From assembly GCF_030384885.1 (NCBI RefSeq), contig NZ_CP128613.1: 64,000 nt of DNA. The stretch is one strand, 5' to 3'. This document shows positions 22,131 through 51,333 of this stretch, one piece after another. Under the pieces are notes generated by a model, which saw only the letters and a program-made list of their open reading frames with translations, ran no database searches and was not told the origin of the DNA. Origin of the DNA: Escherichia coli (GTDB taxonomy: Bacteria; Pseudomonadota; Gammaproteobacteria; Enterobacterales; Enterobacteriaceae). Position 1 is the first letter of the stretch. The number at the start of each line of letters is the position of its first letter. The position numbers and the translations under genes are program-made.

Positions 22131-23135
22131 ATGAAAGTAATTGTAAATAATTTTTTTGATGGTATTTTGAAAAGAGGAATACCGATCTATACTTCTGAAC
22201 TTGTGCAAAAGTTAAGAGACAATAATGTTCAGGTTATTTATGTTGCATGTCCAAAAGCATTCCATAAGCTGCCTTCATGGTTTCTGAATGTTCTTTTTAT
22301 AATAGTAGAGCAGCTTTTAATACCAATTATGGGTATATTTTATAGAACTAAGTATAATATATATCCCTATAATAGTAGTTCCATCATTGACTTGTTATTA
22401 GGTAAGGCAATTGTTATAATTCATGACTTCATTAGTCTTAAGAAAAATAAACGAAACCTTGCTGCCATTTATGTGAAAGTCTGTATTTATTTTTCATCTT
22501 TTTTAGCAAAGAAAGTAATATTTATTTCTCAAAGCACTCAGCGAGTATCTAAGAGAATATCGCTATTTAAGCGTATAGAATCTATCCTGCTCCCAAATCC
22601 ATTTTTCTCATTTGAGAAAATTGCTAATGTTACCGAAATAAAAGATCTTGGATATTTACTTCTAGTTTCAGGTTTAGGGGATAATAAGGATCTAGGCACA
22701 GCTCTGGACTATTATTTTTCAATCCCAAGGGAAGAAAGAATACCATTAAAAATATTAGGTTGTGGGAATGGTATTAGCAAGGTTAACGACTTAATTGATG
22801 GGCGGGATACAGATAAAGAAATTGAAATTATTGGTTTTGTTTCTTTAGAGGAAGTCGTCAAACTATATTGTAATTCTAAAATTGTTTGGGCTCATTCGCT
22901 TGCCGAGGGGTATGGCAGGACTTTAGCTGAAGCAAAACTCACATGCAAAAATGTTATATGCACACGGATCTCTGCTTTCCGCGAACAAAAGGATTCGAAT
23001 ATTTTCTTTTATACTTACTATTCTGAGTATTATGAAGTCTATTCATACTTGGTAGATAATTCACCCAGTGTCGAAAGGAAAGCTCTGCATGAACATATTT
23101 TATTTGAAAATGAATTGAGAAAGATTTATGAGTAA
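22131..23135 (+). CDS. O-antigen glycosyltransferase, GT4-like (likely mannosyltransferase), ~334 aa
   Basis: Low-GC ORF; C-terminal E-x7-E-type motif (AHSLAEGYGRTLAEAK); start set to MKVIVNN at 22131 with RBS aagag. Confidence 0.6.
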   Translation: MKVIVNNFFDGILKRGIPIYTSELVQKLRDNNVQVIYVACPKAFHKLPSWFLNVLFIIVEQLLIPIMGIFYRTKYNIYPYNSSSIIDLLLGKAIVIIHDFISLKKNKRNLAAIYVKVCIYFSSFLAKKVIFISQSTQRVSKRISLFKRIESILLPNPFFSFEKIANVTEIKDLGYLLLVSGLGDNKDLGTALDYYFSIPREERIPLKILGCGNGISKVNDLIDGRDTDKEIEIIGFVSLEEVVKLYCNSKIVWAHSLAEGYGRTLAEAKLTCKNVICTRISAFREQKDSNIFFYTYYSEYYEVYSYLVDNSPSVERKALHEHILFENELRKIYE

Positions 23136-24330
23136 TATTGATATAAATAAGAAACAGATATTAGTTTTGACTCCACGGTTCCCATTTCCTGTCATTGGTG
23201 GGGATCGATTACGTATCTATAAGATCTGTAAAGAACTGTCTAAGCATTATGATCTTACGTTGCTGAGTCTGTGTGATAAACGCGAAGAGCTCAACTATGA
23301 ATATGATCGTGAAGTTTTTAGTAGTGTTCACAGAGTATATCTTTCAAAGAAAAAATCTGTTTTAAATGTCATATTCTCTTTGTTTTCAAATACACCCCTA
23401 CAGATTGGGTATTATAAATCTAAAGAATTTGAAGATAAACTTAAGCAGTTATTACCTGAACATTCTGCAACTCTTTCACATTTGATAAGGGTTGGTGATT
23501 ATGTGAAAGAGAATAAAGATATAAATTTTTTAGAGATGACCGATGCCATTTCACTTAATTATAAACGAGTAAAGGAAAAAGCATCTTTATTGAGTTTAAA
23601 AACATTTGTATATTCTTTTGAACAAAAAAGACTCGAACGATATGAGCGAACTATAAATAACAAGTTCAGCTTGACTACTTTGGTATCACAGGTTGACTCC
23701 GATTATTTATATCCAGAGCGTCCGAATAATGTATTAGTTTGTGGAAATGGTGTTGATGCCGTTAGCTTACCTTTTTCAGAACGAAAAATAGCTAAAGATA
23801 AAAAGATAACCCTTGTATTTATAGGTAATTTATATTCTTTGCAAAATATGGATGGTGTGAGATGGTTCACCAAGGAAGTTTTACCATTTCTGAACAAGCA
23901 TGGTAATTTTGAATTTAAGGTCATCGGACGTATTACAGATAAAGATAAGAGTTGGTTAGAAAGCCAGCCTGGCGTTGTTGTCACAGGTGAAGTTGATAGC
24001 ATAACTTATGCAGCAGCTGATGGGCATATTGGTGTGTGTCCTATTAGATTAGGGGCAGGTATCCAAAATAAGGTACTTGAATATATGGCGTTGGGATTAC
24101 CTTGTATATCTTCTACTGTAGGCTTTGAAGGCTTGGGAGCAGAGGAGGGTAAGGAGATTTATGTTGCCAATACAAAAGAAGAATATTTACGTGTATTAAA
24201 TTATTTTATAACAAATCTGGATAAATATACCGAAACAGCATTAGTTGCGAAAAAGTTTATCGATGAGAATTTTTCATGGGAAGCTAAATTGAGCCCATAT
24301 ATCCAGAAAATTAAGGAGTCTGTTAAATAA
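23128..24330 (+). CDS. O-antigen glycosyltransferase, GT4 family, 400 aa
   Basis: GT4 signature region [43 protein letters not shown]; 8-nt overlap with upstream GT. Confidence 0.7.
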
Positions 24331-24331
24331 A

Positions 24332-25747
24332 ATGATTATCCCAATTATTATGGCCGGTGGTTCTGGGACTCGCTTATGGCCTCTTTCGCGTTCGTTATAC
24401 CCGAAACAATTTTTATCATTGACTAATGAAAATAGTTTGCTCCAGGAAACGTTGAAGCGACTTGATGGATTAAATTGTTTGCCTCCTGTCATTGTTAGCA
24501 ATAATGAGCATAGATTTATTGTTGCTGAACAATTGCGACAGTTCGGTGTGGATGACTTCCAGATTATTCTAGAACCTGTAGGTAGAAATACTGCGCCCGC
24601 CGTTGCGCTGGCTGCTCTAAAGGCTCTGGAACTCCATGGCGATCATCATATGCTGGTTCTTGCTGCTGACCATGCTATTCAGGATATTGAAGCCTTCCAT
24701 GCAGCTGTTTTAGCTGCAGAACAAGAGTCCGTTGACAATAAGTTAGTGACTTTTGGCATCGTCCCGACCAAACCTGAAACTGGGTATGGCTATATTAAAA
24801 AGGGCGAACAAGTTAAAAACTCCGTATTTAAAGTAAATTCTTTCGTCGAAAAACCTGATTTAGAAACGGCTAAAAATTATCTCGAACAAAAATGCTATTT
24901 GTGGAATAGTGGTATGTTCATGTTCAAGGCGAGCGTATATTTAGATGAATTGAAAAAATTTCGCCCTGATATTTTAGCAGCGTGTAAAGAGTCGCTTTCC
25001 AGTGCTAGTACTGATCTAGATTTTATCAGATTAAATTCTGATGTCTTTGCAGAATGTCCCGATGAGTCAATTGATTATGCGGTAATGGAAAAAACTCAGG
25101 ATTGTGTAGTTATTCCACTTGATGCTGACTGGAGTGACATCGGATCATGGACATCACTTTGGGAAATATCAGAGAAAGATGAACATGAAAACGTATCGCA
25201 TGGTGATGTAATTAACTATAACAGCAGGAACAACTACATTTACTCTGAAGGTTCACTGATCAGCACTGTTGGAGTTAATAACCTTATTATAGTTCAAACT
25301 AAAGATGCGCTCCTGGTAGCACAGCAAGACAACGTACAAGACATAAAGAAAATTGTCGAAATTCTTAAAAAACAAAAACGTAGCGAACATATATCCCATC
25401 GCGAAGTCTATCGTCCTTGGGGACGTTATGATTCTGTAGAACGTGGCGACCGTTATCAGGTAAAACGTATTACCGTTAAGCCTGGTGAATGTCTCTCAAC
25501 ACAAATGCATCATCATCGAGCTGAGCATTGGGTGGTTGTCGCTGGTACTGCAAAGGTGACTTGCGGCGAACGCACTTATTTCGTCACTGAAAATGAGTCA
25601 ACTTTCATACCAATTGGCACAGTTCATACCTTGGAAAATCCAGGAAAGATACCATTAGAAGTAATTGAGATTCAGTCGGGTGTATATCTAGGTGATGATG
25701 ATATTGTGCGCCTAAGTGATAAATATGGTCGTGTTGAGGATAAATAA
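24332..25747 (+). CDS. manC: Mannose-1-phosphate guanylyltransferase (O-antigen copy), 471 aa
   Basis: [16 protein letters not shown] motif and cupin C-terminus; paralog of cpsB in this window but low GC. Confidence 0.9.
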
Positions 25748-25751
25748 TTAT

Positions 25752-27173
25752 ATGAATATTACCAATGATGTAATTAAAAATAGCGGAATTGCATTTGGTA
25801 CAAGTGGTGCTCGTGGATTAGTGAAAGATTTTACACCCAACGTGTGTGCTGCATTCACTTATGCTTTTATCGATGTAATGATGAAGGATTTTTCTTTTAA
25901 AGAGGTTGCGCTCGCAATAGATAATCGCCCAAGCAGCTATGCTATGGCACAAGCTTGCGCAGCAGCATTGTTGGAATGTAGTATTAAACCTATTTACTAC
26001 GGTGTAATTCCAACTCCAGCTTTGGCAAATCAAGCGATTGCCGATGGGATTCCTGCAATAATGGTTACTGGAAGTCATATTCCATTTGATAGAAATGGTT
26101 TGAAATTCTATCGTCCAGACGGGGAAATTTCAAAAGAAAATGAGAACAGCATTATACATGCTGAAAAAGAATATCCTGATGTAACTGTATTGCCAGAATT
26201 ACAATGTTCAAAGCGTGCCGCTGATACTTATATCGAGAGAAACACTTCAATTTTTTCAAATATATTTAAAGGTAAACGTATCGGGATTTATGAACATTCA
26301 AGTGCGGGACGGGATCTTTATCCAGAAATATTCAGTAAGCTTGGTGCTGAAGTTGTAAGTATTGGTAGAAGTGATGAGTTTGTGCCTATTGATACTGAAG
26401 CAGTATCAAAAGAAGATGAAGAAAAAGCTTTACACTGGTCATCTGAGTATGACCTCGATATGATTTTTTCTACCGATGGTGATGGCGATCGTCCTTTGGT
26501 TGCTGACGAAAATGGCGTTTGGTTACGGGGTGATATATTAGGACTATTTTGCTCAAAGGCAATGAATATTGAAGCGGTAGCTGTACCTGTAAGTTGTAAT
26601 ACGGTTATTCAGACCTGCGGGTGGTTTAATCATGTAACGCTGACTAAAATTGGTTCACCATACGTCATTTCAGCGTTTGATTCTCTGAATAATAGTTTTG
26701 ATAGTGTTGCAGGGTTTGAGGCTAACGGTGGGTATCTTTTAGGTAGCGATGTAAATTATAACAGCGGTATGATTAAAGCGCTTCCAACAAGAGATGCTGT
26801 TTTGCCTGCTTTAATGGTACTGGCACTGGCTATAAAAAATAATGTGACTATTTCAAAACTTTTGGCGGAGTTGCCACCACGATTTACCTATTCAAATAGA
26901 GTTCAAAATTTTGCAACAAGCAAAAGCAAAAGCATTATCGCGTCAGCTCAAGAAAATCCTCAAGAATTTATCGAAAGAATAGGCTTTGTCGACCTTCATG
27001 TACAATCGGTGGATACAATTGACGGGTTAAGATTGACACTAAGTGATGGTTCAATAATCCATTTGCGACCGTCAGGCAACGCACCTGAATTGCGATGCTA
27101 TGCAGAAGCAGATAACATAATAAAAGCTGAGAAATTAGTGTTAGAAATTTTGCATAAAGTTACTCTTTTGTAA
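25752..27173 (+). CDS. manB: Phosphomannomutase-like alpha-D-phosphohexomutase (O-antigen copy), ~473 aa, divergent from cpsG
   Basis: Phosphohexomutase loops present but atypical: TGSHIP (phosphoserine loop), DGDGDR (metal), GFEANGG (sugar), RPSGNAPE (phosphate); start set to MNITNDV at 25752. Confidence 0.75.
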
Positions 27174-27356
27174 AAAAATATAAACTTTTTTCTACTCTTG
27201 AGCGGTTTGTCATTGAACCGCTCAGTAATAGATTATTTTTAACTTGTTTATATTTAGCATTGGTGTTTTTATTTGCGTTCATCCCGAATAAGAGATTGTA
27301 AAATTAACTGTTTCTTGTTTTTCAAATGAGTTACTTCACTAGCAAAGCTAATTACT

Positions 27357-28688
27357 ATGCATAAGCAATATTATTCATTATTGTGCAATAAAATACAGTT
27401 TAAACATCTGGCTATATATTTTTCTGTATTTCTTTCACTATCCTCATGTTTCTTGTGGGGAGGGGCGGATACATTTGTATCGCAAGTGTATATTGATATT
27501 TTAGCCACTATATCTACAGCTCTATTAGTTATTTTGATGTTCTATTATTATATTAATAGAGTTCGCTATTTATCACTAACCTTACTTTTTGCATTCGTTT
27601 TTTCTTTGATTATTGGTTTGCCATCGATTTATCTTTACTATTTTAAAAACGCAAATCATGGGTTTGAAATAATTTGTATCTGGGGGATGTTGATCAATTC
27701 CATCCTTTACTTGCAAACAACAGAGACTGTCATAAAAGAAGAAAAAAGATATTTAACTAGTTTATTTTATATTTTGTTTTCTATTGTTGCACTGTGTCAA
27801 TTATGCAAAATATTAATTTATCTTATGTTTATATTGAATTCAGGAGAAGGGCATTTAGCAATTTATACTGAAAGCGAAGAATTGCTATCCCAAGTTCCAT
27901 TTTTTATTCGTGCTATTAGTGGTTTTGCAGTTGTAATGTCATTGTCCACTTTTTATTTTAAAACACCGACCTACATTAAAGTTATTGCATTTATTTTACT
28001 TGCATCTGATTTAGCTATTGGAATACGTAATAAGTTTTTCTTTTCAGTGATTTGTATTTTTATACTATATATGTACTCTAATGAGTATAGAGTAAGGAAT
28101 TTATTTAAGCAGCTCTCAAAACCAATATTTCTCATCGCGGGTTTTTTATGCTTCTCGATGGTATCGTATTTCCGTGAAGGGTACCAAATCGATTTTATGA
28201 ATTATATTGGCATTGTTTTAGATTCGCTATCCTCTACTCTTGGGGGGATGCAGAATTTGTTTGATATGCAATCATCAGGATGGGATCAACTTCATCCCGC
28301 TGTGGTATTCACACAAGTATTACCGCTAAGCGGTCTTGGTTTTCTTGATGATCAACAAATCGCAAAAGATTTTTCAATAATTGTTTTAGGTGATGTATCC
28401 TCTGGTATTGCGTTGTCATCTTCAGGATTGTTAGAGTCATCGTTGCTGAGTCTAAATTTGGGAGTGATTATTTATTTACTGTATTTATCAGGGGTGATGC
28501 TATTTATTAAATGGGGACTAAATAATCAACGGATAATAATAAACTTTGTTGCCATCTCCATGATATCTGGATTTTTTTATGCTGTTCGTGGTGAACTGAT
28601 TTTGCCATTGGCTTTTCTTCTAAAATCATTGCCGATTGTTCTTATATCTCCATTACTTGTTAAAAATAAAATTTATCATGGTCAGTAA
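27357..28688 (+). CDS. wzy: Putative O-antigen polymerase Wzy (polytopic membrane protein), 443 aa
   Basis: Very hydrophobic, low-GC, poor RBS, lies next to wzx in the O-antigen cluster; assignment by elimination. Confidence 0.55.
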   Translation: MHKQYYSLLCNKIQFKHLAIYFSVFLSLSSCFLWGGADTFVSQVYIDILATISTALLVILMFYYYINRVRYLSLTLLFAFVFSLIIGLPSIYLYYFKNANHGFEIICIWGMLINSILYLQTTETVIKEEKRYLTSLFYILFSIVALCQLCKILIYLMFILNSGEGHLAIYTESEELLSQVPFFIRAISGFAVVMSLSTFYFKTPTYIKVIAFILLASDLAIGIRNKFFFSVICIFILYMYSNEYRVRNLFKQLSKPIFLIAGFLCFSMVSYFREGYQIDFMNYIGIVLDSLSSTLGGMQNLFDMQSSGWDQLHPAVVFTQVLPLSGLGFLDDQQIAKDFSIIVLGDVSSGIALSSSGLLESSLLSLNLGVIIYLLYLSGVMLFIKWGLNNQRIIINFVAISMISGFFYAVRGELILPLAFLLKSLPIVLISPLLVKNKIYHGQ

Positions 28689-28729
28689 GTGGTTTATTTT
28701 TCGACCAGGATCTCACCAGTAGGCATGAC

Positions 28730-29965
28730 ATGATCAAAGAAATTTTCTCCGATGGCATTTTTTCGCTATTTAATAAAATATGTTACTTCGGTTTTAAAAC
28801 ACTTGCAATAATTCTGATTACTCGTTCCTTAGGAGAAGATGTAGGCGGAGAGTTCATTTTTTTAGTTGGTTTTCTCGAAGTCCTTCGGGTGGTTACTGAT
28901 TTTGGTGTGGATCTGTTTGTTATAAAAAAATATAATGATTCTACAGATAAAATAAAACTATTAAATGTAACGTTTGCACAAAAAATTCTTTCTGGAGTAA
29001 TTGTTTCACTACTGTTTTGTTTGTATTCTTTTGTTCATGGTTATCAATATAATGTCTATATTCCTATTGTGTTAGCCTTACCTGTTGCTTTATTTTTTAA
29101 TTTCTCAAATAGCTATTTTCAATCTCTCAATTCCAATAAATCCCTCACGTTTCCGATCGCAATTGCATCTATTGCAACGTGTACGATCTTCGCTATTCAG
29201 TATTTTTTAAACGTTAAATTTAACGCATGGGATTACCTGTGTGTTGAACTATTATTCGTATCGCTGGTTACACTAAAACTATTCGTTAGTGTCAAGTTTA
29301 GGTTTATTAGAACGTCAGCTTTTGATGTGCTAATGTCAATTCTTTCTTTATATAAATATACATTAAGTATAGGTCTTACAGCTGTTGTTGTAATTATTTA
29401 TAGCCGTGTAGATAATTTTTATCTCAAGACATTTGCCCCAGGGGATCTTGCAGCATATGGCCAGATATTTAGGATGGTTGATCCACTGGTTATGGTTTCT
29501 TCTGTATTTTCTACAGTTGCCTATGCAAGATTTTGCCGAATTAACTTACAAGAAAAAAATGCTTTTACTAAGGTGTTTCAGTTCCTGTTATGTATTGTGG
29601 CATATGGCGTGCTGAGTTCATTAGTTTATTTCTTTATAATAAAATACCTGGGTCATTTTGTGTTGATTTCTAATGTTAATAATGATTTCTTGATAATGAT
29701 GTTCTTGATTGTTGCATGTGTGAAATGTATCAATGGTGGTACAACTGCAATAATTCAGTCACAGGGGTTTTATAAAGTGGGTTTGTATGTTTCGTATGTT
29801 TGCATTTTGACATCGATACCAACTATGTATTTCTTAATAATGAAGTACGGTGTTAAAGGTGCTGCTATGACGATTCTGCTTGTAGAGTGTATTAGTTTCA
29901 TATTACTTCTCTGCAGCTTTTTTATGATAAAAAAGATGCGTCCTAAAAAAACATTCGAAATGTAA
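28730..29965 (+). CDS. wzx: Putative O-antigen flippase Wzx, 411 aa
   Basis: N-terminal region LAIILITRSLGEDVGGEFIFLVG...DFGVDLFVIKK parallels the wzxC N-terminus (LARIIDNHQFGLLTV...DFGIANSIIQRK); about 12 hydrophobic segments. Confidence 0.65.
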   Translation: MIKEIFSDGIFSLFNKICYFGFKTLAIILITRSLGEDVGGEFIFLVGFLEVLRVVTDFGVDLFVIKKYNDSTDKIKLLNVTFAQKILSGVIVSLLFCLYSFVHGYQYNVYIPIVLALPVALFFNFSNSYFQSLNSNKSLTFPIAIASIATCTIFAIQYFLNVKFNAWDYLCVELLFVSLVTLKLFVSVKFRFIRTSAFDVLMSILSLYKYTLSIGLTAVVVIIYSRVDNFYLKTFAPGDLAAYGQIFRMVDPLVMVSSVFSTVAYARFCRINLQEKNAFTKVFQFLLCIVAYGVLSSLVYFFIIKYLGHFVLISNVNNDFLIMMFLIVACVKCINGGTTAIIQSQGFYKVGLYVSYVCILTSIPTMYFLIMKYGVKGAAMTILLVECISFILLLCSFFMIKKMRPKKTFEM

Positions 29966-41389: not shown

Positions 41390-41610
41390 AAAAGTCTCTG
41401 TGAATGTTTATTCAACTGATGTCTTTTAACCTAAACCACTTTCACGTTAGAAAGCAAGGGCTTTTTTATATATTTTATGGCGATGGATTTGTTTAATGAA
41501 TGAGCGGGGAAAGGAGAGGGCCAGGAGTGGCTACGTTAAAAAAGTAATCGTGAAAATATGTCTTTAAAACCCTCAAGAACATTGTGTTCTGTAACTAAAG
41601 TGGGCTTGGT

Positions 41611-41715
41611 TCCTGCCGGATGCGGCGTGAATGCCTTATCTGGTCTACAAATGTTGCCTAAATTCAATATATTGATGTTTTTGTAGGACTGATAAGCGGA
41701 GCGCATCAGGCAATT
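41611..41715. repeat. BIME: two REP palindromes in the hisL-yeeZ intergenic region
   Basis: gcctgccggatgcggcgtgaatgccttatctggtctac and inverted copy gtaggactgataagcggagcgcatcaggc. Confidence 0.75.
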
Positions 41716-41815
41716 GTATATTTGCTAACAGTTTCGATTTCATTCATAGAATGAATTGTCAGTTTTGATACGCTAGCGTAGCCTTATAGATCTAAGGTGT
41801 ATCAGGAGATAACGG

Positions 41816-45240: not shown

Positions 45241-45278
45241 TCTTACAAGCCGGATGACATAATCATCCGGTAAATCTC

Positions 45279-45310
45279 AAAAAGCCGGAGTTTGTCGCTC
45301 CGGCTTTTTT
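45279..45310. terminator. Bidirectional rho-independent terminator between convergent plaP and sbcB
   Basis: aaaaagccggagtttgtcgctccggctttttt (perfect 7-bp stem flanked by A5 and T6). Confidence 0.85.
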
Positions 45311-45313
45311 GTT

Positions 45314-46741
45314 TCAGACGATCTCTTCCGCGTACTGCCAAAGCGCTTTTAACAGCGCCACTTTCTCTTTGTCATCGGCATATTGTTGTGCCAGCATCTG
45401 CAATTCATCAGCATAGCCCTGCAAAAACTCTGGCGTGAAAACCTGGCGGCGGTGCTCCAGCCAGCGTTGCTGCTCGGCATAATCCAGCGTCCCCGGGAAG
45501 TTGCGCGCCCGATAATTGAACAACAGCTTTTCAATCCGTTTATCAACAAAAGTGATATCCAGTGCCGGTAAATTACGCGGCTCGGTTTCCAGCACAATTT
45601 TCATTGCTGCACGATCGGCGTCACTGAAAAAGCCATTATAAAGCTGTGCATCCACGTTATCTGAAGGCGTAAACGGTTCGGCTTCGGCGAATATCGCCAC
45701 CACTTTTTCACGCACTTGCGGATTTTCACGCAGAATTTTCAGGTTATCGAGGCAATGCTGACGATTAATTCCCAGTCGGTCGGCATCTTCCGGGCGTAGC
45801 GTATTCGCCTGGGCCAGCACCGGACATTTATTGATATGCACCAGTTTAACCGGAACGGCGGCGTTATCGCCAAGATCGGCTTTTGCGGTATATAAACGCT
45901 CGCGCAATGTGTCGCTATCCAGCTCCAGTAATGGCGAAATGTCTCCTGCCAAATCCACCATAATTACGGCATTGCGATTTTCAGGATGCCACGCCAGCGG
46001 TGCCACCCAGCTGGTATTGCCACGCCATGCCCCAAACATTCCGGAAACGTGAACCAGGGGTTTCATCTGCGGAACATCAATCAACGCCATCAGTTTGTGT
46101 TTATTACGATGGGTAAAGAGATAATCAAACAGGCGTGGCTGACGCGTTTTTACCAGTTTCGCCATCGCAATAGTGGCGTACACATCAGCCATCGCATCGT
46201 GGGCGTTGCTATGTTCAATACCATTCGCTTTGGTTAAATGCTCAAGGCGAAAGCTCGGTAGACCGTCATCATTTTCAGGCCAGTTTATTCCTTCCGGGCG
46301 CAGGGCATAACAGGCACGCATAACATCCAGTAAATCCCAGCGCGAGTTATCATGCTGCCAGCTCCAGGCGTAAGGATCGTAGAAATTACGATAAAAAACG
46401 TTGCGTGTGACTTCGTCGTCGAAACGCACATTGTTGTAGCCCAGAATACAGGTCTTCGGTACGGTAAAAAGCGAGTGAATACGGGCGGCAAACGCGGCTT
46501 CGTTTTCTCCTTTCGCCCGTGCCTCCTGCGGGGTAATACCGGTAATTAATACTGCTTCAGGCTGGGGTAAATAGTCATCCGCGGGCTTGCAGTAAAAGAC
46601 TTCGGGTTCGCCGATGACATTGAATTCGTTATCAGTGCGAATGGCTGCGAACTGTGCAGGGCGATCTAACGCGGGGTGCGTTCCAAAGGTTTCGTAATCG
46701 TGAAACAAAAAGGTAGATTGTTGCTTACCGTCATTCATCAT
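45314..46741 (-). CDS. sbcB: Exodeoxyribonuclease I, 475 aa
   Basis: DnaQ-like exonuclease N-terminus FLFHDYETFGTHPALDRPAQFAAIRTD; start set to MMNDGKQQ. Confidence 0.95.
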   Translation of the reverse strand: MMNDGKQQSTFLFHDYETFGTHPALDRPAQFAAIRTDNEFNVIGEPEVFYCKPADDYLPQPEAVLITGITPQEARAKGENEAAFAARIHSLFTVPKTCILGYNNVRFDDEVTRNVFYRNFYDPYAWSWQHDNSRWDLLDVMRACYALRPEGINWPENDDGLPSFRLEHLTKANGIEHSNAHDAMADVYATIAMAKLVKTRQPRLFDYLFTHRNKHKLMALIDVPQMKPLVHVSGMFGAWRGNTSWVAPLAWHPENRNAVIMVDLAGDISPLLELDSDTLRERLYTAKADLGDNAAVPVKLVHINKCPVLAQANTLRPEDADRLGINRQHCLDNLKILRENPQVREKVVAIFAEAEPFTPSDNVDAQLYNGFFSDADRAAMKIVLETEPRNLPALDITFVDKRIEKLLFNYRARNFPGTLDYAEQQRWLEHRRQVFTPEFLQGYADELQMLAQQYADDKEKVALLKALWQYAEEIV

Positions 46742-46949
46742 TAGGTTAAATCCGTTATTTCTGCTGTCTGCCAGAGTATCAAATATCACCGTGCTAATCA
46801 GCTTTAGCGCGACAATTTGGCAGCGAGTGGCAACAGATCATGTCAGATAAAAATGAGATAGTAGTCACATTTTCTTGCACTTTATTCCAGCCAGTTCATA
46901 AGTATTTCCGTAAAAAGAACAGCTATTTGAAACACCTGAGGGTTTGCTG

Positions 46950-48116
46950 TTGAAACGCCGTCTTATTATTGCTGCTTCTTTGTTCGTTTTTAATTTATCG
47001 TCTGGTTTTGCGGCGGAAAACATTCCTTTTTCACCTCAGCCTCCAGAGATTCATGCCGGGTCCTGGGTATTGATGGATTACACCACCGGTCAGATTCTCA
47101 CCGCGGGTAATGAGCATCAACAGCGCAATCCCGCCAGCCTGACAAAGCTGATGACGGGCTATGTTGTGGATCGCGCTATCGATAGTCATCGCATTACGCC
47201 AGACGATATTGTCACCGTGGGGCGTGATGCGTGGGCGAAAGATAATCCGGTGTTTGTCGGTTCTTCACTGATGTTTTTGAAAGAGGGCGATCGCGTATCG
47301 GTACGTGATTTAAGCCGTGGTTTAATTGTGGATTCCGGAAATGACGCTTGTGTTGCACTGGCTGACTATATTGCCGGTGGGCAACGGCAGTTTGTTGAAA
47401 TGATGAACAACTATGCCGAGAAGCTGCATCTCAAGGATACGCATTTTGAAACAGTGCATGGTCTGGATGCACCTGGCCAGCATAGCTCGGCTTATGATTT
47501 AGCTGTGCTTTCTCGCGCTATCATCCACGGCGAGCCCGAGTTTTATCATATGTACAGTGAGAAAAGCCTCACCTGGAACGGTATCACCCAGCAAAACCGT
47601 AACGGGTTATTGTGGGATAAAACCATGAATGTTGACGGCCTGAAAACGGGTCATACTTCTGGTGCCGGGTTTAATCTCATTGCTTCGGCTGTAGACGGGC
47701 AGCGTCGCCTCATTGCAGTGGTAATGGGTGCTGACAGCGCAAAAGGTCGTGAGGACGAGGCAAGAAAATTACTGCGTTGGGGGCAACAAAACTTTACTAC
47801 GGTGCAAATTTTGCACCGTGGGAAAAAGGTCGGGACGGAACGTATCTGGTATGGCGATAAAGAAAATATCGCCCTGGGAACGGAACAAGAGTTCTGGATG
47901 GTGCTACCTAAAGCCGAAATTCCACATATCAAAGCCAAATATACCCTTGATGGTAAAGAACTCACCGCGCCAATTAGCGCCCATCAGCGGGTAGGGGAAA
48001 TTGAACTTTACGACCGTGATAAACAGGTGGCGCACTGGCCGCTGGTTACCCTGGAATCTGTCGGGGAAGGCAGCATGTTTTCCCGCCTGAGTGATTATTT
48101 CCACCATAAGGCCTGA
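46950..48116 (+). CDS. dacD: D-alanyl-D-alanine carboxypeptidase DacD (PBP6b), 388 aa
   Basis: SxxK motif (SLTKLM), SGN, KTG motifs; apparent TTG start. Confidence 0.9.
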   Translation: MKRRLIIAASLFVFNLSSGFAAENIPFSPQPPEIHAGSWVLMDYTTGQILTAGNEHQQRNPASLTKLMTGYVVDRAIDSHRITPDDIVTVGRDAWAKDNPVFVGSSLMFLKEGDRVSVRDLSRGLIVDSGNDACVALADYIAGGQRQFVEMMNNYAEKLHLKDTHFETVHGLDAPGQHSSAYDLAVLSRAIIHGEPEFYHMYSEKSLTWNGITQQNRNGLLWDKTMNVDGLKTGHTSGAGFNLIASAVDGQRRLIAVVMGADSAKGREDEARKLLRWGQQNFTTVQILHRGKKVGTERIWYGDKENIALGTEQEFWMVLPKAEIPHIKAKYTLDGKELTAPISAHQRVGEIELYDRDKQVAHWPLVTLESVGEGSMFSRLSDYFHHKA

Positions 48117-48234
48117 CCTTTCTTTTGCAGCAGACTGGCAGGAGTGCGAGTCTGCTCGCATAATCAACACTCATTCCTTGTGGTTTTAATATTGCAACTA
48201 TACTGTATATAAAAACAGTATTGGTGGAGGTGTC

Positions 48235-48708
48235 ATGAACTACGAGATTAAGCAGGAAGATAAACGTACCGTTGCAGGTTTCCATCTTGTTGGCCCGTGG
48301 GAGCAGACGGTAAAGAAAGGTTTTGAGCAGTTGATGATGTGGGTAGATAGCAAAAATATCGTGCCGAAGGAGTGGGTTGCTGTCTATTACGACAATCCAG
48401 ATGAAACACCCGCCGAAAAATTACGCTGCGACACCGTCGTGACGGTACCGAATAACTTTACGCTCCCCGAAAACAGTGAGGGCGTCATTCTGACAGAAAT
48501 TTCAGGTGGTCAGTATGCGGTGGCGGTGGCGCGTGTAGTCGGTGATGATTTTGCTAAACCCTGGTATCAGTTCATTAATAGCCTCTTGCAGGACAGTGCT
48601 TATGAAATGTTACCAAAGCCCTGCTTTGAGGTTTATTTGAACAATGGCGCGGAAGAGGGGTACTGGGATATCGAAATGTATGTTGCGGTGCAGCCAAAAC
48701 ATCACTAA
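48235..48708 (+). CDS. sbmC: DNA gyrase inhibitor SbmC/GyrI, 157 aa
   Basis: Size, synteny, GyrI-like fold sequence. Confidence 0.9.
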
Positions 48709-48905
48709 TTCATCTCAGGGCGGTGTGTAACGCGATGACCACTCTTTTTTTGAAAGCGAAAAGAGTAAGATGCGCCTTTCAAATTTTTCGCTCCTGCCGG
48801 GAAATTACACTGTTCCCGGTATGTCCGTCGGATAATTCAGAGGCGCGCCTTCTGGCCGACAGATGTGTTATGAGCGCTTTTAATCTTCATTAACGGAGTT
48901 TCTGC

Positions 48906-49964
48906 GTGCGTGCCGATAAGTCATTAAGCCCGTTTGAAATCCGGGTATACCGCCATTACCGCATTGTGCATGGTACTCGGGTCGCGCTGGCATTCCTGCT
49001 CACTTTTCTCATTATCCGCCTGTTTACTATCCCGGAAAGCACCTGGCCGCTGGTCACCATGGTGGTGATTATGGGGCCAATCTCGTTCTGGGGTAACGTT
49101 GTCCCTCGCGCCTTTGAACGTATTGGCGGTACGGTGTTGGGGTCGATTTTAGGTCTTATCGCTCTGCAACTGGAGTTAATCTCGTTACCTCTGATGTTGG
49201 TCTGGTGCGCGGCGGCCATGTTCCTTTGTGGTTGGCTGGCGCTGGGCAAGAAACCGTATCAAGGTTTATTGATTGGGGTGACGCTGGCAATTGTTGTTGG
49301 TTCCCCGACAGGTGAAATTGATACGGCGTTATGGCGAAGCGGCGATGTGATCCTCGGCTCTTTACTGGCAATGTTGTTTACCGGTATCTGGCCACAAAGG
49401 GCGTTCATCCACTGGCGCATTCAACTGGCGAAAAGTCTGACCGAGTATAATCGGGTCTATCAATCTGCATTCTCACCGAACTTACTCGAACGCCCACGTC
49501 TGGAAAGCCATCTACAAAAACTCCTGACCGATGCCGTGAAAATGCGTGGGCTGATTGCGCCCGCCAGCAAAGAAACCCGTATTCCCAAATCGATATATGA
49601 AGGTATCCAGACCATTAATCGCAATCTGGTTTGTATGCTGGAGTTGCAAATCAATGCATACTGGGCCACGCGCCCCAGCCATTTCGTGTTATTGAACGCG
49701 CAAAAACTTCGTGATACCCAGCACATGATGCAGCAAATACTGCTGAGCCTTGTTCATGCGCTGTACGAAGGTAATCCGCAGCCGGTTTTTGCCAATACGG
49801 AAAAATTGAACGATGCTGTGGAAGAGCTGCGTCAGTTGCTCGATAACCACCATGACCTGAAAGTCGTGGAAACACCAATCTATGGTTATGTGTGGCTGAA
49901 CATGGAAACAGCGCATCAGCTTGAATTGCTATCGAATCTGATTTGCCGGGCCTTGCGCAAATAA
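48906..49964 (+). CDS. yeeA: FUSC-family inner membrane protein YeeA, 352 aa
   Basis: Size and synteny; N-terminal TM region. Confidence 0.85.
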   Translation: MRADKSLSPFEIRVYRHYRIVHGTRVALAFLLTFLIIRLFTIPESTWPLVTMVVIMGPISFWGNVVPRAFERIGGTVLGSILGLIALQLELISLPLMLVWCAAAMFLCGWLALGKKPYQGLLIGVTLAIVVGSPTGEIDTALWRSGDVILGSLLAMLFTGIWPQRAFIHWRIQLAKSLTEYNRVYQSAFSPNLLERPRLESHLQKLLTDAVKMRGLIAPASKETRIPKSIYEGIQTINRNLVCMLELQINAYWATRPSHFVLLNAQKLRDTQHMMQQILLSLVHALYEGNPQPVFANTEKLNDAVEELRQLLDNHHDLKVVETPIYGYVWLNMETAHQLELLSNLICRALRK

Positions 49965-50135
49965 TTCCTGAACTTCAGAATCATCTTGCTGCTGCTTCGA
50001 TTCAGCAAGGATAAAGGGTATGATAGTGAAAAGGGATAAAAGCATTGTCATCTGCGGCAGCTATGAGTAATGTTGGCCCTAACGAATAGCGGTTGCTTAA
50101 ACGAATCCGACTCTCACATTATCAGGGGTATAAAA

Positions 50136-50465
50136 ATGGAAACTACCAAGCCTTCATTCCAGGATGTACTGGAATTTGTTCGTCTGTTCCGTCGTAAGAA
50201 CAAACTGCAACGTGAAATTCAGGACGTTGAGAAAAAGATCCGTGACAACCAGAAGCGCGTCCTGCTGCTGGACAACCTGAGTGATTACATCAAGCCGGGG
50301 ATGAGCGTTGAAGCAATCCAGGGCATCATCGCCAGCATGAAAGGTGACTATGAAGATCGCGTTGACGATTACATCATCAAAAATGCCGAGCTCTCCAAAG
50401 AACGCCGCGATATCTCCAAAAAGCTGAAAGCTATGGGCGAAATGAAAAACGGCGAAGCGAAGTAA
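50136..50465 (+). CDS. yeeX: UPF0265/DUF496 protein YeeX, 109 aa
   Basis: Start set to [14 protein letters not shown]; ORF upstream extension lacks RBS. Confidence 0.85.
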
Positions 50466-50479
50466 TTCCTGTTTTATTC

Positions 50480-50506
50480 AATGAGGGTTGCCCGGTAACC
50501 CTCATT
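50480..50506 (+). terminator. Hairpin terminator after yeeX
   Basis: aatgagggttgcccggtaaccctcatt (10-bp perfect stem) followed by T-rich tract. Confidence 0.65.
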
Positions 50507-50565
50507 GCTCATTGTTTCTTTTCTGTGTATCACCGTCATCACTCCCATCTGATAACCTATTGAAA

Positions 50566-50841
50566 TTAGCGACAGCCTTCTTCTGTATGCAGCAAGGCAA
50601 AAAGTTCTGTAACTCCATTGTTATTAACCGCACTGGTTACTAACACGTTGTGCGCTCCAGCTTCCCGTAACCAACATTTCACCAAAGATATTTGTTCCAT
50701 ACTGGCTAAATCTGCTTTGGTTACTACTCCAATGACCGGGCGATTCATTGACGAGGTAAAGCCTGGCGAAAAAGGTGACCACGGTGCGTCCGCATTAAGT
50801 ACCAGCGCGATAATGTCTGCTTCGCAGGCACTGACCAACAA
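50566..50841 (-). pseudogene. yoeF: C-terminal fragment of an EutP/PduV-family GTPase (yoeF-like remnant)
   Basis: 91-aa ORF resembling the C-terminal half of EutP/PduV (…[12 protein letters not shown]…); no P-loop N-terminus present. Confidence 0.5.
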
Positions 50842-51200
50842 TGCACTGTAAAGGCGGCGATTTTATTGGTGAGGACTGGCAGCAAGATTTCCAGCCTCTT
50901 AACGGTGGGCCTGTGCAATCGTTATCAGATGCGTATAGCGATTATTCAGTGCTGCTATTGATAGCAGCTGAAAGCGAGATATCCGTTCCAGAATGGTTCC
51001 CTCATTCTGAGGGAACGACGGTAATTTTGATTGCAGAACACAATGCCCGTTTGCTGAATGGTCCGGCTGGTGGGGCTGTAGCATTAATCCATTATTTGAA
51101 TGAAATCTGTCATGCCAGAGAAACCGCTGTCAATGACGCATTTTGTCGGACGTTAACACGAGGAAGTCTGGCTATTCCGCAATGCCATCTTCTTTCGTAA
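50841..51200 (+). pseudogene. Possible 3' remnant of cbiP (cobyric acid synthase) immediately upstream of cobU
   Basis: 119-aa ORF co-directional with and directly upstream of cobU, where cbiP sits in Salmonella; identity not verified. Confidence 0.25.
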
Positions 51201-51333
51201 TGGATTGAGAATGCTGGATTTTTAATTATATTACGCGCAGTATTAATCGCGTAAATGTTTTGCGGTCAGCAACGGTGGGGGATCCATTGTTCTGTTCAAT
51301 GAATACCATCATACAATTGAATCAGGAGTCGGT

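Follow-up and report, generated by a model that had tools for sequence, protein, structure and literature searches.

How did the interval between tmaR (formerly yeeX) and the cobUST operon of this Escherichia coli strain come to be so short, and what are the gene fragments within it? In the 64,000-nucleotide stretch of DNA analyzed here (contig NZ_CP128613.1 of assembly GCF_030384885.1; hereafter, the window), the end of tmaR at 50465 and the start of cobU at 51334 are separated by 868 bp (50466 to 51333). The original prediction had put this spacing at about 870 bp and had drawn attention to two open reading frames (ORFs), one of 91 codons on the minus strand (50566 to 50841) and one of 119 codons on the plus strand (50841 to 51200); the spacing agrees, and the program-made ORF list holds both. 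We conclude that the interval is very probably the scar of a 15.7-kb deletion that brought two pseudogene stumps together, one the 3′ part of pduV and the other cbiG without its beginning. It is an ordinary gene-loss polymorphism, and one that is largely annotated already. Indeed, in E. coli 2013C-4282 (NZ_CP027579.1), with which the window is collinear at 99.98 to 99.996% identity, the NCBI annotation gives 50566-50862 as an EutP/PduV pseudogene (“incomplete, missing N-terminus”) and 50841-51200 as a “hypothetical protein.”

The minus-strand stump, pduV′ (50566 to 50864), comprises codons 50 to 147 and part of codon 49 of pduV, as defined by the Pfam family PduV-EutP (PF10662) and by alignment with the PduV proteins of the pdu-positive E. 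coli strain DS566 and of Salmonella. It had been proposed to be an EutP/PduV-like C-terminal fragment, and this identification holds: the stump matches PF10662 with an E value of 4.5e-24 (85.3 bits, gathering cutoff of 21; profile positions 58 to 142 of 143), shares 96 of 98 residues with residues 50 to 147 of the 147-residue DS566 PduV, and is 71% identical to a Salmonella protein named PduV. Orthologous position also designates it as PduV, with 98% DNA identity to the DS566 gene that follows pduU and abuts tmaR. The pduV-homologous DNA reaches 50862/50864, slightly past the TTG start of the ORF at 50841. Against TIGR02528, the stump scores 83 bits, under the whole-protein cutoff of 138, because only 60% of the PduV protein is left. 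The N-terminal 49 residues are gone, so that the stump falls short of a complete PduV/EutP protein and therefore cannot be a working one; pduV′ is a pseudogene fragment and not a functional member of the PduV/EutP family of microcompartment GTPases.

The undeleted counterpart of the scar is found in DS566 (locus L005), where the same site reads tmaR, pduV to pduA on the opposite strand, pduF, pocR, a cobalamin riboswitch, a 145-codon cbiG stump (cbiG′), and cobUST; pduV is the last pdu gene, with neither pduW nor pduX. Window positions 50300 to 50864 correspond to L005 9253 to 9816 and positions 50861 to 51500 to L005 25523 to 26162, both at 98% identity. The 4-bp overlap of these two blocks, TTTT at 50861 to 50864, is common to both parental flanks (GTTTT in other alleles) and marks the deletion junction. 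The window equals the DS566 layout minus 15,706 bp, a segment bounded by pduV codon 49 and cbiG′ codon 33. Lost with this segment were the 5′ part of pduV, pduU to pduA, pduF, the small RNA STnc230, pocR, the cobalamin riboswitch, a leader ORF, and cbiG′ codons 1 to 33. The truncations are complementary: the window retains PduV residues 50 to 147 and CbiG′ residues 34 to 145, and the missing halves are exactly those present in pdu-positive strains. The annotation of DS566 itself lists the diol dehydratase reactivase genes pduG and pduH (L005 17880 to 18504) as truncated pseudogenes, a sign that the operon of this strain may also be decaying.

The order pduF, pocR, riboswitch, cbiG′ recurs in a second E. 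coli allele class and in Escherichia albertii, Escherichia marmotae, and Escherichia fergusonii. E. albertii and E. marmotae share the part that runs from pduF through pocR and cbiG′ into the cob genes as far as cobS, and the match of E. fergusonii ends at the cbiG′ remnant; these outgroup loci span only about 10 kb upstream of cbiG′, so that the pduV/tmaR end lies outside them. The short form is derived, because the longer haplotype supplies both missing gene halves and three outgroup species have the long form. The unrelated strains STEC2018-553 and F344 have the same 868-bp interval and junction, including a derived A at 50865, and differ from the window at 24 to 31 other positions. The same junction and the same derived base in otherwise differing strains imply one inherited event, which points to a single old deletion that was probably followed by drift and recombination.

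The plus-strand ORF is a chimera (50841 to 51200, with 50862 to 51200 derived from cbiG). Alignment with alleles of 144 and 145 residues and the NCBIfam model NF004463 (CbiG, cobalt-precorrin-5A hydrolase) resolve it into an ATG and 7 codons that run antisense through pduV′, followed in frame by cbiG′ codons 34 to 145; it exists as an ORF because the join happens to be in frame. The Pfam scan of this ORF gave no match, and NF004463 was its sole NCBIfam match, a weak one (E = 2.6e-4; profile positions 41 to 126 of 351). A homology search retrieved only relatives from Escherichia and Shigella, many of them 144 to 145 residues long and extending the ORF upstream with “MKTIKPESIALFCL...”. The intact 145-residue allele matches NF004463 with an E value of 1.7e-21 from the first profile position (1 to 126 of 351), and intact cbiG′ alleles are 37% identical to residues 1 to 125 of a 358-residue CbiG that carries all three Pfam CbiG domains. 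When 14 Cbi proteins of an intact operon on a metagenomic contig (L019) were used as tblastn queries, CbiG was the only one to score (E = 4.6e-5 for the window interval and 1.3e-19 for the intact allele). An AlphaFold model of the 145-residue allele (predicted local distance difference test score of 77.4; predicted template modeling score of 0.71) superposes best on 3eeq_B, a solved CbiG homologue (probability of 0.99, TM score of 0.53, and root mean square deviation of 3.3 Å over 121 columns), at a Foldseek E value of 0.036 and amid many Rossmann-like matches. Even the intact allele reaches at best 77 bits against the NF004463 equivalog cutoff of 546, and neither CbiG_mid nor CbiG_C was found in it; cbiG′ is a remnant, not a CbiG enzyme. 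A hint from a MAFFT alignment that the tail of cbiG′ (residues 118 to 145) stems from the C-terminal domain of CbiG was rejected, since local-alignment scores were no better than those of shuffled sequences (p = 0.13 to 1.0).

In pdu-positive Escherichia, the intact stump seems to be under selection. It occupies L005 25425 to 25862 in DS566 and 10001 to 10435/10471 in loci L007, L009, and L018, with 144 to 156 codons, and no stop interrupts its frame in any of the four species, be it E. coli, E. albertii, E. marmotae, or E. fergusonii, despite a synonymous divergence (dS) of 0.4 to 1.4. The pairwise ratio of nonsynonymous to synonymous divergence (dN/dS) is 0.32 to 0.42 in all of the four-species comparisons, versus 0.02 to 0.09 for pocR, pduF, cobS, and ldtA. 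When neutral evolution was simulated at the observed dS, none of 20,000 replicates remained open in all three of the E. coli, E. albertii, and E. marmotae lineages (P < 5e-5). E. fergusonii retains the stump although its cobUST genes are gone. The stump of strain LF82 is annotated as CbiG (LF82_328) and was detected by RNA sequencing (PMC4509574).

The surroundings of the intact stump are conserved as well. The riboswitch always lies 218 nucleotides upstream of the cbiG′ start (L005 25207 to 25430; same region in L007, L009, L017, and L018), and between the two a conserved ribosome-binding site (RBS) with ATGGCGGCA (an ATG-GCG-GCA start) opens an ORF of 44 to 48 codons. The stop codon of this leader ORF overlaps the cbiG′ ATG (ATGA) in DS566, and the two frames are fused in one allele (P0003). 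The RBS and the ATG-GCG-GCA start presumably resemble the beginning of Salmonella cbiA, and the leader ORF may be a remnant of it, a likeness that no significant match backs: in pdu-positive strains, NCBIfam and tblastn searches of the stretch that separates the riboswitch from cbiG′ returned nothing significant for cbiA or cbiF. For DNA comparison, L019, the only intact locus at hand, is too distant (68% identity in pocR). Selection may be keeping the frame of the intact stump open, in which case the stump is no dead pseudogene, a proposal that we hold tentatively and put slightly short of an even call. It encodes the N-terminal third or so of CbiG and could act as a stand-alone protein, for example, in corrinoid salvage or in Pdu metabolism, or as a spacer whose translation relays the control exerted by the riboswitch to the genes downstream. 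If this is true, the window strain, K-12, and most E. coli strains lost a small functional gene and not just junk.

Could the chimeric ORF of the window still be an expressed, useful gene that keeps part of the stump's function? Its frame is open to the native stop in the window, STEC2018-553, F344, and Shigella dysenteriae alleles, and the intact stump is seemingly under selection in pdu-positive lineages. However, the chimera lacks the 33 most conserved N-terminal codons together with the RBS, the riboswitch leader, and the promoter region, and no Shine-Dalgarno sequence precedes the ATG at 50841. That ATG is lost in F344, the S. dysenteriae allele has an internal deletion, and K-12-type strains retain only 48 codons; moreover, at about 3% divergence among alleles, an open frame is expected by chance. 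We therefore consider continued function of the chimera unlikely and take cbiG′ in the window, which is without its first 33 codons and every upstream signal, to be a broken copy.

The original prediction had instead taken the plus-strand ORF for a possible 3′ remnant of cbiP and the interval for the likely scar of one ancestral deletion of cbi and pdu that left only cobUST. In intact loci (L019), cbiP does lie directly upstream of cobU, which makes a cbiP tail the natural expectation, and the NCBI name of the corresponding K-12 fragment is only “cobalamin biosynthesis protein.” Yet the best tblastn match of CbiP (518 residues) to the interval had an E value of 1.3, which is noise, whereas CbiG was significant and the NCBIfam model places the family at CbiG 1 to 126. 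When the ORF and every stop-free translation of 51090-51336 were scanned against Pfam and NCBIfam, no CbiP came up, nor any family in the spacer ahead of cobU, and a CbiP origin was rejected for both. As for the deletion, pdu-positive E. coli and the three other Escherichia species keep pdu without cbiA to cbiF and cbiH to cbiP, so that the loss of cbi and the loss of pdu are separate. The stump is all of cbi that any of the four species examined has, which dates the loss of the cbi genes to before the diversification of the genus. The comparison of loci thus argues for two layers of loss, an old one of cbi before the genus diversified and a later one of pdu, pocR, and the riboswitch within E. 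coli. To call the interval the scar of a single ancestral cbi-pdu deletion was an overstatement, the pduV′::cbiG′ junction being the later E. coli deletion, and the combined cbiP and single-deletion account appears very improbable.

We give almost no credence to the converse polarity, in which the short interval came first and other strains acquired their pdu operon as an island inserted into it. In a census of 5,426 complete E. coli genomes, pduV-pduU was intact in only 644 (~12%), and a hypothesis of Lawrence and Roth, as cited in PMC3158058, holds that cob-pdu was lost and reacquired in enterics; both speak for an insertion. Nevertheless, an insertion could not have completed two genes that are both cut short in the “empty” state, the pdu-positive layout is shared by E. 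albertii, E. marmotae, and E. fergusonii, and neither target-site duplications nor mobile-element ends were seen at L005 9816 and 25523. In the same census, the contiguous window-type interval was present in 199 genomes, a 102-bp junction probe matched 137 at megablast sensitivity, and most of the remaining genomes had a K-12-type left boundary. The interval has also been eroded repeatedly, with other right-hand breakpoints at window positions 51074, 51146, 51147, 51194, and 51206. In strain 48 (L012 19919 to 20277), nothing of cbiG′ is left, and a 177-nucleotide pduV stump lies at a distance of about 180 bp from cobU.

In K-12, 13,267 bp separate the stop codon of tmaR from the start of cobU, with the CP4-44 element inside. 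The original prediction had the element at the right place, between tmaR and cobU, but the interval is shorter than the roughly 20 kb assigned to it. Like the window, the K-12 interval has the same two stumps, anchor genes, and orientation; unlike the window, its stumps are a 60-codon EutP/PduV fragment and, upstream of cobU, a 48-codon “cobalamin biosynthesis protein” pseudogene, both shorter than those of the window and with about 12.7 kb of island and insertion sequence (IS) DNA between them. Going by the coordinates in PMC11551758, the 60-codon fragment next to tmaR is probably yoeF. Between the K-12 stumps lie a transposase fragment, yeeW, cbtA, cbeA, yeeT, yeeS, yeeR′, agn43, a GTPase fragment, receptor fragments, IS2, and IS5; no pdu or pocR remnants were found inside this island. 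None of the Ag43, CbtA/CbeA, or IS genes occurs in the 868-bp interval of the window, which holds the two stumps only, so that the predicted absence of Ag43 and of the CbtA/CbeA module from this locus is correct.

That absence does not make the interval an empty CP4-44 site, as had also been suggested. Homology of K-12 to the pdu-positive layout ends at L005 9700 (window 50748) and restarts at L005 25691 (window 51029); K-12 therefore lacks 280 bp that the window keeps (50749 to 51028, junction included, with 116 bp of pduV and 168 bp of cbiG′), and the window cannot be the excision product of a K-12-like state. The right flank also belongs to another allele class, and the site is not a precise attachment site. 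The K-12 right stump carries a 9-nucleotide deletion, a premature stop, and three single-nucleotide polymorphisms (SNPs) that it shares with the pdu-positive allele L017, and the window-type alleles share the DS566-like allele. That the window is a K-12-like chromosome from which a CP4-44-type island was excised is scarcely credible, even though K-12 and most E. coli strains have an island in this interval, since excision can neither restore the 280 bp that the K-12 flanks lack nor account for window-type alleles without the 9-nucleotide deletion, premature stop, and three SNPs. The simplest reading of these alleles would be two independent losses of pdu on different haplotypes, a microhomology deletion in the window lineage and replacement by a CP4-44-type island in K-12-like strains; recombination could blur this picture. 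Strain WEM25, tried as a candidate for an island together with an intact cbiG′, was rejected, as it is simply pdu positive.

Downstream of the scar, the cobinamide-salvage operon that forms the right anchor is intact on the plus strand (51334 to 53710), as judged from its ORFs and annotation: cobU (51334 to 51879; Pfam CobU, E = 2.1e-64), cobS (51876 to 52619), and cobT (52631 to 53710). A 133-bp spacer (51201 to 51333, plus strand) that includes the cobU RBS precedes it and was studied by a comparison of five E. coli alleles and a promoter scan. Only 1 SNP falls in 51193 to 51333 across the five alleles, versus many in the adjacent cbiG′ body, and this near-invariance suggests a conserved promoter or leader for cobUST. 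The scan placed a sigma-70-like site, TTGAGA-16-TATATT, at 51205 to 51232 (10 of 12 consensus positions), the number of such sites being not above that of a shuffled control. The cobalamin riboswitch family RF00174 had no match in window 46000-56000 at an E value of ≤1. The same family scores 105 to 113 bits in every pdu-positive locus examined (109 bits in DS566), and each of these loci also carries STnc230 (Rfam RF02075; 65 to 76 bits) between pduF and pocR (L003 4360 to 4443; about 8430 to 8550 in L007, L009, L017, and L018). The consequence for the locus is that no Pdu microcompartment genes, PocR, STnc230, or B12 riboswitch stand ahead of an intact cobUST, and we infer that cobUST would be transcribed from the 133-bp spacer without B12 control.

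Several points weigh against the deletion-scar account as set out here. Its polarity is inferred from outgroups and complementary truncated genes. The assignment to cbiG draws on an NCBIfam full-length model and on pairwise alignments that are partly driven by the very conserved first 14 residues, and Pfam CbiG_N misses the remnant altogether (E ≤ 1). The fold match of the modeled stump is weak (E = 0.036, with no Foldseek match at E ≤ 0.001) and is consistent with CbiG without being decisive. Lastly, the promoter proposed in the spacer is a consensus match only, such matches being no more numerous than in the shuffled control.

With these points in mind, we still favor a 15.7-kb deletion and propose the following history. 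The ancestral Escherichia layout would have been tmaR, pduV to pduA, pduF, pocR, riboswitch, short leader ORF, a cbiG of about 145 codons encoding the N-terminal part only, and cobUST, with the cbi genes for de novo B12 synthesis already gone. Later, in the ancestry of this strain, 15.7 kb would have been removed by a single illegitimate recombination at a 4- to 5-bp microhomology (GTTTT), which brought the antisense pduV tail into frame with cbiG′ and so created the 119-codon ORF. A CP4-44-type island fills the same interval in most E. coli strains but would have arisen on a different haplotype, and the strain studied here need never have carried one.

The left anchor, tmaR (50136 to 50465, plus strand), is intact (Pfam DUF496, E = 2.3e-45) and is named as such in a near-identical record. 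Between the converging ends of tmaR and pduV′, a scan for terminator-like sites found a hairpin with a 13-bp stem (50479 to 50507), which is likely a shared terminator; the same inverted repeat is present in pdu-positive DS566. Some outgroup loci have decayed at the cob end. In E. fergusonii (L018 10001 to 11624), ldtA directly follows the cbiG stump and cobUST is gone, and in an E. albertii strain (L007 10435 to 11877), cobU is decayed (CTG start, no gene called) and cobT is missing, which leaves cobS only.

Elsewhere in the window, two gene pairs are absent relative to K-12: the yefM-yoeB toxin-antitoxin pair between hisL and yeeZ (41390 to 41815) and tsuA/tsuB (yeeE/yeeD) between plaP and sbcB (45241 to 45313). 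Three tRNA-Asn genes downstream of ldtA (54763 to 54838, 57172 to 57247, and 58996 to 59071) have no adjoining integrase or island; in WEM25 (L014), an integrase pseudogene and IS1 copies lie at the first tRNA-Asn. In the near-identical record, the annotation assigns wzy and wzx of the galF-gnd O-antigen cluster (22131 to 29965) to the O17/O44/O73/O77/O106 family.

This locus does not enable the strain to build a Pdu microcompartment. That some E. coli strains have pdu and others lack it is already known (PMC4509574, PMC9220930), and loss of cob-pdu in E. coli is already a concept, credited to Lawrence and Roth as they are cited in PMC3158058. In the literature searched, we found no paper that describes the pduV′::cbiG′ junction, and likewise none on the cbiG identity of the ORF, on a two-route loss, or on selection on the stump; none of these is surprising in kind. 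Our analysis corrects a tempting misannotation, a cbiP tail for what is a cbiG head, and would mean that pdu was lost from E. coli on at least two occasions, each by a different route. The one thread of wider interest is the cbiG stump, which is seemingly maintained by selection across the genus.

The closest known systems include the pdu-positive E. coli haplotype of DS566, WEM25, and LF82, which has flanks 98% identical to those of the window and, unlike the window, still has the 15.7 kb; it represents the undeleted parent state. The Salmonella bongori locus (PMC3158058) resembles the window in its big cob-pdu deletion, in the truncated end genes left as a scar, and in its homologous chromosomal position. 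Its scar differs in consisting of cobT and pduX fragments only, with cobU and cobS lost too, and in its end points, and is an independent event. In Salmonella, pduX stands at the cluster end (PMC3158058), and Escherichia is without it. Finally, the intact enterobacterial cob-pdu locus of the Salmonella, Citrobacter, and Klebsiella type, represented here by the metagenomic contig L019, matches Escherichia in its order of pduA, pduF and pocR, leader, cbi genes, and cobUST but, unlike Escherichia, has the full cbiA to cbiP set, including a 358-residue, three-domain CbiG.

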